From assembly GCA_047602405.1 (NCBI GenBank), contig JASGHJ010000002.1:2912001-2976000 (forward strand): a stretch of 64,000 nucleotides of DNA, in the 5' to 3' direction. A model generated the notes under the pieces. That model saw only the letters and a list, made by a program, of their open reading frames with translations. It was not told the DNA's origin and ran no database searches. The stretch comes from Anaeromyxobacteraceae bacterium. GTDB lineage: Bacteria > Myxococcota > Myxococcia > Myxococcales > Anaeromyxobacteraceae. The position numbers and the translations under genes are program-made. Shown one piece after another: positions 11,402 to 35,192 of the stretch (position 1 is the stretch's first letter; each line of letters starts with the position of its first letter).

Positions 11402-11481
11402 GCGCGCGGCAGGATACGAGACCGGACCGGCGCCGCCTTGCGGCGATACCGCCCACCCCGGGACTTGCCGCCGGGGTGGGA

Positions 11482-11531
11482 CCGTTCATCCCGAGCGTAG
11501 GCCCGCCTTCGGCGGGCCGGAGTCGAGGGAC
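11482..11531 (+). repeat. REP-like structured dispersed repeat, copy 1
   Basis: CCGTTCATCCCGAGCGTA-GGCCCGCC-ttc-GGCGGGCC-GGAGTCGAGGGAC; flanks shared with 15495-15544. Confidence 0.75.
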
Positions 11532-11589
11532 GACCCCCCGGAAGCGCAGAGTTGCGGGAGGGACCCAGGTGGGATATTCGCCTGGATCC

Positions 11590-13896
<2,307 letters not shown>

Positions 13897-15338: not shown

Positions 15339-15382
15339 CCGCGGGCGGCGGGCCGGCGCAGACGTCTGCGTCCAACCCTCCC

Positions 15383-15505
15383 CCGTCCGTCCCTCTCCCC
15401 CCCGTCCGTCCCTCTCCCCCCCGCCCGTCCCTCTCCCCCCGCCCGTCCCACTCCCCCCGCCCATCCCACTCCCCCCCCCGTCCCTCTCCCACCCCCGTCC
15501 GTCCC
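15383..15505 (+). repeat. C-rich tandem array, 6-7 units of ~18-19 bp (CCGYCCRTCCCWCTCCCC)
   Basis: Units start at about 15383, 15402, 15421, 15439, 15457, 15475 and 15495; the last one runs into the REP-like element. Confidence 0.85.
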
Positions 15506-15544
15506 GAGCGTAGCCCCCGCGCAGCGGGGGCGGAGACGAGGGAC
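15495..15544 (+). repeat. REP-like structured dispersed repeat, copy 2
   Basis: CCGTCCGTCCCGAGCGTA-GCCCCCGC-gca-GCGGGGGC-GGAGACGAGGGAC. Confidence 0.75.
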
Positions 15545-15598
15545 CGGGGCCCGGGACTCAGATCCGCCCTGAGCCCCAGCAGGATCCTGCGATCTCAC

Positions 15599-15620
15599 TG
15601 TCAGACCGGGGTGGCAGGAT
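15599..15620 (+). promoter_or_regulatory. Putative PafBC/RecA-NDp-like promoter of the HNH gene
   Basis: TGTCAG-N10-CAGGAT, 7 nt before the ATG; the actinobacterial consensus is TGTCGG-N10-TA-N3-T. Confidence 0.45.
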
Positions 15621-15627
15621 CGCGGGC

Positions 15628-17472
15628 ATGGACGCGTGCGCGGCCAGCGAGATCGTCGGCGGAGTGCCTCCGGAGCTCGTGCCTCCGGAGCTCGCCCCGG
15701 CGGCTGCCTCGAACGACGCCGTCTCCGCGCAGGCCGCGAGCGGCATCACGCACCGCGACCCGCTCGGCGACCGCTGGGATCTCCGCGCGCCGCGGTGGGA
15801 TCTCCCGACCTTCACGCTGTTCGAGCTGCGCGAGCTCTGGCTGCGCGGCGACGGCGGCCTCGAGAAGTACGAACGCGCTCTCGCCCAGGGCGCTCGCATG
15901 CTGCGGGCCCTGCAGGTCAGCCGCGCCGCGGTGCTCGCCAAGTTCACGGAGGGTGACCGGCTCGCCCGGCTGGGCTTCTCGAGCCTCGGGGACTTCACCG
16001 AGAACCTCCTCGGCACCCGCCGGCGCGCCGCGCAGGTGGAGGTCCAGCTCTCGAAGGCGCTGCGGGAGCGGCCGCTCCTCAGGGCCGCGGTGCACGCCGG
16101 CACGGTGAGCCCGTCGGCGGCGCTCGCGGTCCTGCCGGTCACCCCCGGGGACGACGAGGCGCGCTGGGTCGAGCGCGCGGCCGAGCTGCCGGTCCGCAGG
16201 CTCAAGCAGGAGGTGAAGCGGGCGCTGAAGGAGCGGAAGGCGCTGCCGGGGCCCGACGCGGCGGAGGAGAAGAGGGAGGAGGACGAGGCGCCCTGGGTGC
16301 ACCTCGACGTGCCGATCTCGGATCGGGCCAGCGAGCGGCTCCACAAGGCCCTCGCCCTCGCCGGCGAGCTCGTCGAGAGCCCGCACCGGTTCGTCCAGCT
16401 CGAGGCGCTCGGGCAGGAGTTCCTCTCCGAGCACCCGGGCGACGAGTGGGACGTGAAGGGCGCGGAGCTCGCCCTCGATCGAAAGCTGCATCCCCTCGAC
16501 GTCCCGACGAAGCGGAACGCCGCGGAGGCGAAGCTCGAGTCCGAGACCTCTTCCTGGGAGTTCCTCGACCCCGTCGTCCCGGTGCCTTCGGTCGAGCTCG
16601 ACCCGCTCGACGCTGCCACCGACGACGACCTCTACGGCACGGCGCTCGGCCTCTCCCTGGAGATCAAGAGCTGGGAGGACCTCATCGGCTTCTGCTCGGC
16701 GGTCGTGAAGGGCGCCCGGCTCCACAAGGAGGCCGGCTTCGTCGACTTCCGTCACTACGCGACCGAGCGGCTCGGCGTCCCGGCCCGCACCATCGAGACC
16801 CGCGCCGCGCTCGAGAAGCACCTCTGGGAGAAGCCCGAGCTCAAGGTCGCCAAGGAGATGGGCCTCAGCTACTCGAAGCTGCTCCTCCTGAAGGAGGTCC
16901 CGCAGGACCAGATCCTGGAATTCGCGAAGCGGGCCGAGACCCTGACGGTGGTCGAGCTCAAGGAGGCCGTCCAGGCGCGGACCGACGCGCATATGTCTGC
17001 GTCGAAGCGGTTCCGGGTGTGGGTCCCCCGCCGGGTCGCCCTGCTGCTCCACCAGGCGTTCCTGGCCTCGTTGGCGCTTCCGGTTCCGCCGGAGGAGGCG
17101 GAGACCCCCCAATCCAGCACCCTGGACGGCGCCTTTCTCGGGAAGCTCGCGGACCACTTCATCGCGGTCTGGGGCGGCGACGTGATGGAGCCGAAGACGG
17201 TCTCCCAGAAGCAGCGCGCGAAGTACCCGCGCTGCTGCTTCCCCGGCTGCAGCCGCCGCAGCGACCACGGCCACCACATCGAGTTCCGCAGCCACGGCGG
17301 CTCGGAGGACGCCTGGAACCGCATGCCGCTCTGCGCCTTCCACCACCACGTCGTCGTCCACGGCGGCCACGCCACCATCACCGGCATCTTCCCCGACGCC
17401 GTCGAGTTCCGCGTGAACGGCGTCGTCTGGAAGGACGCGAAGTTCGGGCGAACGCGCGCGGAGCGGGTGTAG
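15628..17472 (+). CDS. Large HNH endonuclease (DUF222/13E12-like architecture)
   Basis: C-terminal CCFPGC...HHIEFRSHGGS...N...LCAFHH...H; helical N-terminal region with a duplicated GF-x5-[FY]-x-E-x-LG motif. Confidence 0.85.
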   Translation: MDACAASEIVGGVPPELVPPELAPAAASNDAVSAQAASGITHRDPLGDRWDLRAPRWDLPTFTLFELRELWLRGDGGLEKYERALAQGARMLRALQVSRAAVLAKFTEGDRLARLGFSSLGDFTENLLGTRRRAAQVEVQLSKALRERPLLRAAVHAGTVSPSAALAVLPVTPGDDEARWVERAAELPVRRLKQEVKRALKERKALPGPDAAEEKREEDEAPWVHLDVPISDRASERLHKALALAGELVESPHRFVQLEALGQEFLSEHPGDEWDVKGAELALDRKLHPLDVPTKRNAAEAKLESETSSWEFLDPVVPVPSVELDPLDAATDDDLYGTALGLSLEIKSWEDLIGFCSAVVKGARLHKEAGFVDFRHYATERLGVPARTIETRAALEKHLWEKPELKVAKEMGLSYSKLLLLKEVPQDQILEFAKRAETLTVVELKEAVQARTDAHMSASKRFRVWVPRRVALLLHQAFLASLALPVPPEEAETPQSSTLDGAFLGKLADHFIAVWGGDVMEPKTVSQKQRAKYPRCCFPGCSRRSDHGHHIEFRSHGGSEDAWNRMPLCAFHHHVVVHGGHATITGIFPDAVEFRVNGVVWKDAKFGRTRAERV

Positions 17473-34990: not shown

Positions 34991-34999
34991 GGGGAGCAG

Positions 35000-35192
35000 C
35001 TACTTCTTCCCCTCGCCTTCCCCGCCGCCCTTCCCCTCCCGCGGCTCCGGCACCCCCTCGTCCTCCTCGAGCATCCGGTACTTCGCGCCCTCGGGGTCCT
35101 CGTACTGCGCCGCTCTTCACCGTCCACATGAAGAACGCCCACGCCCCGAGGCCGAGGCCGAGCGACAGGAGGATGAGGCCGGCGAGGTTCAC
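35000..35192 (-). CDS. ccoS: cbb3 oxidase maturation protein CcoS/FixS; frameshift ~35109
   Basis: TM helix then FMWTVKSG/QYEDPEGAKYRML; last gene of the cco operon. Confidence 0.85.

Follow-up and report, generated by a model that had tools for sequence, protein, structure and literature searches.

Results

The HNH locus and its features

We examined a window of 64,000 nucleotides, meaning the whole stretch of DNA analyzed (G000:C2:2912001-2976000; GC 74%), from the genome of an Anaeromyxobacteraceae bacterium, here called G000, in which a tandem array, a REP-like (repetitive extragenic palindromic) hairpin, a TGTCAG-N10 motif, and a probably leaderless start lie ahead of a gene for a 614-amino-acid HNH protein. 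The original prediction had grouped these four elements and the gene into one nuclease cassette, and repeat, pattern, and open reading frame (ORF) searches confirmed each of them in its place. We conclude that the four features are real but are not one system, and we suggest tentatively that the gene encodes a damage-induced nuclease recognizing a palindromic site within its own coding sequence. The original prediction noted neither that intragenic site nor its upstream copy, which falls outside the interval it covered. The features of the locus are as follows.

15356..15370, no strand assigned: upstream copy of the palindromic site of the HNH family (P, GCGCAGACGTCTGCG), found by genome search and alignments
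15380..15500, + strand: C-rich tandem array of 18-19 bp units that reiterate the left arm of the REP-like repeat, from a repeat finder
15497..15544, + strand: GTAG-tagged REP-like hairpin repeat, from genome-wide pattern and profile searches
15553..15598, + strand: conserved upstream core of 11 close copies, a small CTCAG/CTGAG hairpin plus CCCTGAGCCCCAG, from paralogue comparison
15599..15620, + strand: PafBC-type promoter motif TGTCAG-N10-CAGGAT with an ATG 7 nucleotides downstream, from a motif search; predicted leaderless
15628..17472, + strand: HNH gene, 614 amino acids, with two DUF222-related helical repeats and a C-terminal HNH domain (ORF; GC content at third codon positions 0.96)
15907..16242, + strand: repeat 1 (residues about 94-205), whose homology to repeat 2 is seen by BLASTP and domain profile
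16660..17004, + strand: repeat 2, residues about 345-459, a predicted ParB/Noc/KorB-type helix-turn-helix DNA-binding domain, from profile and structure searches
16987..17001, + strand: intragenic quasi-palindromic site GCGCATATGTCTGCG, codons A454-H-M-S-A458, under DNA-level constraint across the family
17230..17358, + strand: HNH nuclease domain (residues about 535-577) whose zinc ligands and catalytic residues are all intact, from Pfam matches of homologues and solved HNH domains

Loci are labeled h for close copies in G000, d for distant copies, and L for extracted loci. The close-copy subfamily of the gene is carried by G000 and by its sister genome, G010.

A palindromic site inside the gene

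The intragenic quasi-palindrome spans 12-16 bp and is built with the rare codons CAT and TCT (usage of TCT 0.7%, TGT 2.3%, and CAT 2.2%). The last base of codon 457 is T in 25 of 32 non-redundant family members, though the codon encodes Arg, Cys, or Ser; A or T occupies the wobble position in a mean of 7% (standard deviation, 6%) over 530 columns and in 36% at the next column. An exact second copy of a locus's own 12-mer was found within -2000 to +500 nucleotides in 28 of 82 loci versus 4 of 401 control 12-mers, the loci being related to one another; d4, L013, and L014 were left out of this count. Inverted partners of the site sit within the gene or upstream of it and match over 14-19 nucleotides. 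A central A/C change in the site is mirrored in the partner (CAG ATG/ACG CAT versus CAG CTG/ACG CAG), and this co-variation is found in two separate gene clades, with the variant following the host genome.

Beyond the gene, G000 has 27 occurrences of the perfect 16-mer and G010 has 21; these are the two genomes with the close-copy subfamily, and the 39 other genomes searched have none. For the 12-mer, 27 occurrences were seen and 0.38 expected. Eleven perfect-palindrome copies lie within 800 nucleotides upstream of close copies. At the window locus, similarity to G010 stops at P and similarity to the paralogues h1, h8, and h9 continues into the gene, and P may be a landing site or a remnant here. 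The perfect palindrome is also present in recJ of both G000 and G010, where it is made by synonymous rare AGA and CGT codons in place of the other codons used by 12 of 12 relatives. Other predicted host coding sequences bear the palindrome through rare codons (G000:C1:155165, 794706, 835536, and 871894), as do further predicted host coding sequences at G000:C2:1747933, 2151406, and 3441815, several of these seven being common to G010.

In other lineages, extra copies follow the local form of the site. Paralogues in G013 contain three to five tandem copies of their own site variant inside the gene, and G001 has two arrays of its own variant, one of 10 copies about 60 bp apart (C21:343969-344523) and one of 4 copies 140-185 bp apart (C14:135033-135525). 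The gene of one-domain relatives carries a perfect CACGTG-centered palindrome in 10 of 10 cases from six genomes, some of them tandem, and two-domain relatives of another family have an asymmetric site at the same place in five of five. For the QMCA variant, the predicted palindromic forms showed no enrichment in other genomes.

Taken together, these patterns suggest that the intragenic palindrome is likely the site bound by the HNH protein. An arrangement without the protein, with the site base-pairing to the inverted partner in RNA or single-stranded DNA or serving as the target of a host protein, seems to us quite improbable. The 14-19 nucleotides of perfect complementarity, with their compensatory change, and the lack of a protein residue that tracks the variant would suit it. 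However, the partner of many loci is located upstream of the predicted leaderless start and hence falls outside the message, one-domain relatives rely on palindromes that are self-contained and on tandem copies in direct orientation, and the perfect site is limited to the two genomes with the subfamily. A literature search, with most subscription papers outside its reach, returned no paper on an intragenic site of this kind.

Predicted DNA-binding and nuclease domains

The internal duplication proposed for the HNH protein is borne out by BLASTP (E values of 4e-6 and 5e-4) and by one domain profile that matches twice. Repeat 2 modeled alone gave a confident structure (predicted local distance difference test score, pLDDT, 91.2), and its structure search placed ParB, KorB, and Spo0J DNA-binding domains as the top 4 of 48,161 chains (Z of 7.3-7.7), with a root-mean-square deviation of 2.7 over 91-95 residues for two of the top matches and DNA-bound ParB-type structures among the matches. 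Noc and Spo0J also rank first in a Foldseek search of this repeat (E of 0.55-2), and Pfam HTH_ParB is found in 3 of 84 homologues. The full-length model was likewise confident (pLDDT of 88.6); Foldseek with it returned nothing at an E value of ≤0.001. The protein is thus predicted to carry two ParB/Noc-like DNA-binding domains. DNA-binding domains of ParB, Noc, and KorB bind short palindromes as dimers, and the association of one domain with a symmetric site and of two domains with an asymmetric one fits dimer binding of ParB-type domains. No CTPase domain family of Pfam was matched among the 84 members.

At the C terminus, the HNH match of the 614-amino-acid protein is under the Pfam cut-off (E of 0.056), Pfam HNH being found in 45 of the 84 homologues. 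The residues CxxxxC, HH, N, and CxxHH are all present, and the domain aligns with solved HNH domains, including those of IscB and HNH-Cascade subunits. The suggested kinship with DUF222/13E12 proteins also held, with a qualification: Pfam DUF222 does not match the 614-amino-acid protein itself and matches 4 of 84 homologues at an E value of ≤0.01, but the repeat-domain profile matches one protein that passes the DUF222 cut-off. Because its repeat profile matches a true DUF222 protein, the HNH protein is a DUF222 relative with a doubled domain. No NCBIfam family was matched by the protein, and its named homologues are from Anaeromyxobacter sp. One of the one-domain relatives (L165:197-1540) has a RuvA_C domain at its C terminus, after the HNH domain.

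A damage-type promoter and a probable PafBC link

The motif in front of the gene had been read as a damage-type promoter with a leaderless start, and the family at large agrees with this reading. In 72 of 79 family loci, an in-frame start follows a PafBC-type motif; this count, like the tree described below, leaves out six broken or truncated loci (d3, d4, L013, L014, L016, and L123). With a spacer of 10, the motif has 26 matches in G000, family copies included, versus 0-7 at spacers of 6-9 and 11-14. The same motif lies upstream of the repair genes uvrA, polA, ruvB, and radA, a uvrD-like gene, two ssb genes, and a gene for a PolB-type exonuclease. It was not found in G000 upstream of either recA (220 nucleotides for recA and lexA) or of lexA, uvrB, recN, recG, mfd, recJ, or lhr. 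G000 encodes side-by-side WYL genes that match PafB and PafC (L056:841-2894). A LexA-box-like sequence, by the consensus of PMC9705874, is present in 8 of 9 distant copies checked and in neither the window copy nor h7.

The published PafBC consensus is tGTCgg(N10)tA(N3)T (PMC8635444), with a TGTCAG variant (PMC8151990), and in Myxococcus xanthus, 24 of 51 genes were already described as having a PafBC-binding sequence (PMC9705874); the PafBC homologues MXAN_1359/1360 were left aside in the cited part of PMC12288472. The locus shares with the PafBC regulon the motif and its spacing, the adjacent PafB and PafC homologues, and the presence of the motif at repair genes. It differs in that the motif was not found in the 220 nucleotides upstream of recA and lexA here and in that the cited portions of the literature contain no experimental demonstration for myxobacteria. 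We infer that the HNH gene is likely switched on by DNA damage via PafBC, and the sequence of the locus supports the existence of a PafBC-type regulon in Anaeromyxobacter-like bacteria.

Several further observations touch on this regulon. G000 has a second tandem pair of WYL genes (L057:1019 onward). Five small G000 genes (L064, L066, L067, L068, and L072) with a PafBC-type motif are candidate new damage-response genes; four have no Pfam family, none has an NCBIfam family, and two show GTTCAG beside the motif. The two ssb genes (G000:C1:20445 and C1:5868) have identical promoters in inverted orientation, about 15 kb apart. Family members of different clades in G022 (L076) and G001 (L128) both stand directly before the uvrD-like gene, which has the same promoter type, a place that is empty in G000.

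Copies, distribution, and turnover

The gene is multicopy, as had been supposed, and a single-copy gene is refuted by 17 family loci in G000, of which 11 are close copies (45-100% identity), 5 are distant (about 29%), and 1 is a remnant. Four copies are frameshifted (h2, h4, d3, and d4). All 24 same-genus genomes searched have family members, and 2394 representatives match at an E value of ≤0.001; when genome contigs were scanned with a single distant protein, 1 locus came up, the alignments being too diverged for that scan. Plasmid and phage collections contained no match to the family. dN/dS, the ratio of nonsynonymous to synonymous substitution rates, is 0.10-0.40 in 13 pairs, indicating purifying selection.

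The locations of the copies are largely lineage specific. Many family sites are common to G000 and G010, and the expected lack of synteny holds beyond this sister genome, as only 1 of 24 relatives' sites adjoins a G000 copy. Five G000 sites (h0, h1, h3, h6, and h8) hold unrelated genes in G010, and the window's own site there (L040:4017-6058) holds a lipoprotein-like gene and a Y1 (RAYT-like) transposase gene. A copy in G015 is absent from G003 and G007, where the gap measures 1 and 46 nucleotides versus 1858, and a G007 copy is absent from G018. New sites may be gains, with gains and losses of copies looking alike in these comparisons. By orientation, which was taken from 16 G000 copies, 10 of the 11 close copies and 3 of the 5 distant ones face a neighbor's 3' end, the base rate being 1651 of 4995 genes (33%); crude neighbor calls on 77 loci (44 convergent, 27 same, and 6 none) were noisy and were not used.

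In the phylogenetic tree, paralogues group by genome and not by site; for example, h5 groups with h8, h9, and h10, apart from the G010 copy at its own site. Since the copies group by genome, we explain their near-identity by gene conversion among them, as judged from the sequences, and reject near-identity as proof of recent jumps.

Two side observations concern the same family. At window positions 34994-35030, G000 has an empty site that is filled in G010 by about 2.5 kb, which include a distant member of the family and a small divergent gene (L025); no target duplication was seen. In G010 (L018:3000-3320) and G015 (L181), family genes are cut off beside tyrosine-recombinase-like ORFs, possibly by integration into the family gene; integration into the gene is known for REP13E12.

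The Y1 transposase gene at the window's site in G010, about 1 kb from P, raises the idea that a RAYT-like Y1 transposase has the scattered palindrome as its end sequence and that the likeness of the palindrome to the inner site is secondary. We find this scarcely plausible: in G000, a distance of 74-148 kb separates the six Y1 matches from the nearest P, the inner site predates the lineage, and the extra copies match each lineage's own variant.

The main alternative role for the protein would be that of an operator-binding repressor, which binds the inner and upstream copies of the site, loops the DNA, and represses its own gene in the manner of KorB, while the nuclease serves the host in repair, growth arrest, or defense within the damage regulon and copies turn over by ordinary recombination and transfer. 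The KorB/ParB-type fold, the partner copies upstream of the promoter in several lineages, the purifying selection, a promoter type common to repair genes, and the lack of element ends are all in line with this role. Left unexplained by this role alone, however, are the exact co-variation seen at central bases although none of the recognition residues tracks them, the tandem stutters of the site, its synonymous creation in recJ, and the 17 loci with broken members at lineage-specific places, and we therefore hold it to be rather unlikely.

The upstream repeat and the C-rich array

The REP-like hairpin and the C-rich array had been proposed as the target, end, or RNA component of the element. 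As a structured repeat, the hairpin is genuine in that it recurs genome wide in G000 (256 pattern matches and 298 profile matches), but the 141-nucleotide stretch at 15490-15630 folds no better than shuffled sequences (z of -0.63). Rfam gave no match on the locus at an E value of ≤1. The repeat is commonest between convergent genes (69 of 317 gaps). The array (period 18, 6.7 copies, 92% matches) has a score of 168, the best of 124 rows for the window; its copy number varies between paralogues, and left-arm stutters also occur at two REPs without an HNH gene.

A working role for the two elements draws on the presence of the repeat at a constant distance ahead of 8 of the 11 close copies and on the 10 of 11 close copies that face a neighbor's 3' end, where the repeat is also commonest. 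However, it is one copied variant: the window's exact form occurs 10 times in G000, 9 of them upstream of close copies, and was evidently carried along with the gene. The repeat is absent from all 5 distant copies, and its profile, which was built from G000 so that diverged repeats may escape it, matched 9 of 170 flanks of 85 loci (a set without h4). In G010, other repeat types occupy the upstream slot. The proposed co-occurrence thus holds across the family for the promoter and not for the repeat; the sequence that accompanies the family is instead the short palindrome within the gene. A role as target, end, or RNA partner is very unlikely on these grounds, and we rejected both elements as working parts; the sequence comparisons identify them as passengers of one subfamily. 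The upstream core at 15553..15598 was found at only 11 places in G000, all of them close copies.

GTAG REPs are known to be enriched between convergent genes (PMC3733652, in the cited part of which Anaeromyxobacter is not named). The window hairpin resembles those of REPtrons and TIRtrons (RAYT and TIRYT) in being GTAG tagged, genome wide, and enriched between convergent genes, and it differs in that the HNH gene is not a Y1 HUH transposase gene and the repeat lies on the upstream side only, in one subfamily.

Neighboring genes

The HNH gene has a small membrane-protein gene on one side and a convergent PilZ-like gene on the other. ORFs and Pfam revealed no transposase or integrase adjoining it, in agreement with the original prediction. 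Elsewhere in the window, an ORF at 11476-13896, putatively glutamine-tRNA-ligase-like by its motifs, has a long C-terminal extension and lies beside a second tRNA-ligase-like ORF, presumably glutamate-tRNA-ligase-like.

Discussion

We propose, with a probability of roughly 0.45, that the locus is a damage-induced, self-recognizing HNH nuclease gene whose product binds and nicks the gene's own site and which spreads slowly through copying driven by repair. The proposal builds on the promoter motif together with the PafB and PafC homologues, the lineage-specific multicopy sites, the conversion among copies, the constraint on the site and its co-varying partners, the tandem and scattered sites that match the local variant, and the perfect palindromes in one-domain relatives. 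In this mechanism, DNA damage would induce the HNH gene through PafBC, and the two ParB/Noc-like domains would bind the intragenic site, a tandem pair reading an asymmetric site and a one-domain homodimer a symmetric one. The HNH nuclease would then nick the bound site, and the nicks would be repaired by template switching with co-induced PolA, UvrD, RuvB, RadA, and SSB. Through such repair copying, the gene copies would be homogenized, further instances of the site would arise in nearby and host DNA, and, on rare occasions, an additional gene copy would be seeded.

A number of observations weigh against this proposal. Binding, cutting, induction, and movement all rest on sequence and predicted structure, and the ParB-like fold scores are borderline (Z under 8; Foldseek E of 0.55-2). 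The distant G000 copies have TGG at codon 457, and therefore no constraint can be read there. In 54 of 82 loci, an exact second copy of the site is missing, the inner site and the upstream copy at the window locus differ at 2 of 12 bases, and no helix-turn-helix residue tracks the A/C variant among 30 loci. As G000 and G010 are sisters, their shared palindrome counts as one event; only recJ could be compared with outgroups, a second host gene with P having no relatives in 19 other genomes. Comparison of filled and empty sites, which had been suggested as a check for element ends and target duplications, showed no ends, inverted repeats, or target duplication at three comparisons with diverged junctions, a difference from classical insertion sequences with their terminal inverted repeats. 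The five G000 sites with unrelated genes in G010 offer no clean empty site either, and with no ends visible, loss and ordinary gene turnover could therefore explain the pattern.

Among known systems, the closest is the 13E12/REP13E12 family of mycobacteria (DUF222, often with HNH). Shared traits are dispersed multicopy genes, a C-terminal HNH domain with zinc ligands, the RecA-NDp/PafBC promoter motif, and gene conversion among paralogues. The 13E12 genes are DNA damage inducible, with RecA-NDp promoter and LexA sites (PMC3381160), and REP13E12 paralogues undergo gene conversion (PMC13061034) and are recombination hotspots (PMC13157036). In contrast, the host here is myxobacterial, the helical domain is doubled, Pfam DUF222 is unmatched, and the cited portions of the 13E12 literature mention no intragenic palindromic site. 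The locus is, from sequence comparison, a DUF222/13E12-type relative whose new element is the intragenic palindromic site.

Other systems share single traits. ParB, Noc, and KorB, with their parS, Noc-binding site (NBS), or operator palindromes, have in common with the HNH protein a repeat fold predicted with borderline scores and a short palindromic candidate site, but here no CTPase domain was matched, each chain has two domains, an HNH domain is fused to them, and the candidate site is inside the gene. The gene resembles homing endonuclease genes in being a stand-alone HNH gene at variable sites; the candidate site here, however, is intact inside the HNH gene and is not interrupted by it. 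IscB/HEARO resembles the protein in its HNH domain, the match being limited to that region (no RuvC or PLMP), and no Rfam RNA was matched at the threshold given above.

More broadly, we tentatively suggest a self-recognizing selfish gene that borrows a host damage promoter and nicks its own in-frame palindrome, so that host repair copies the site, and at times the entire gene, to other places; it would need no transposase, ends, or guide RNA, and a symmetric site would accompany one domain and an asymmetric site a pair of domains. The DUF222/13E12 family as a whole may spread in this manner, which may also be why it marks hotspots of conversion and inversion. DUF222/13E12-type HNH genes are common, damage induced, and tied to gene conversion and inversions, and the cited parts of the literature assign them no function. 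The site described here offers them a candidate substrate of 12-16 bp that is fixed by rare codons, exists in natural variants, has partners that co-vary with it, and has left a footprint in a host gene, and makes binding, nicking, and spreading directly testable for a widespread gene family.

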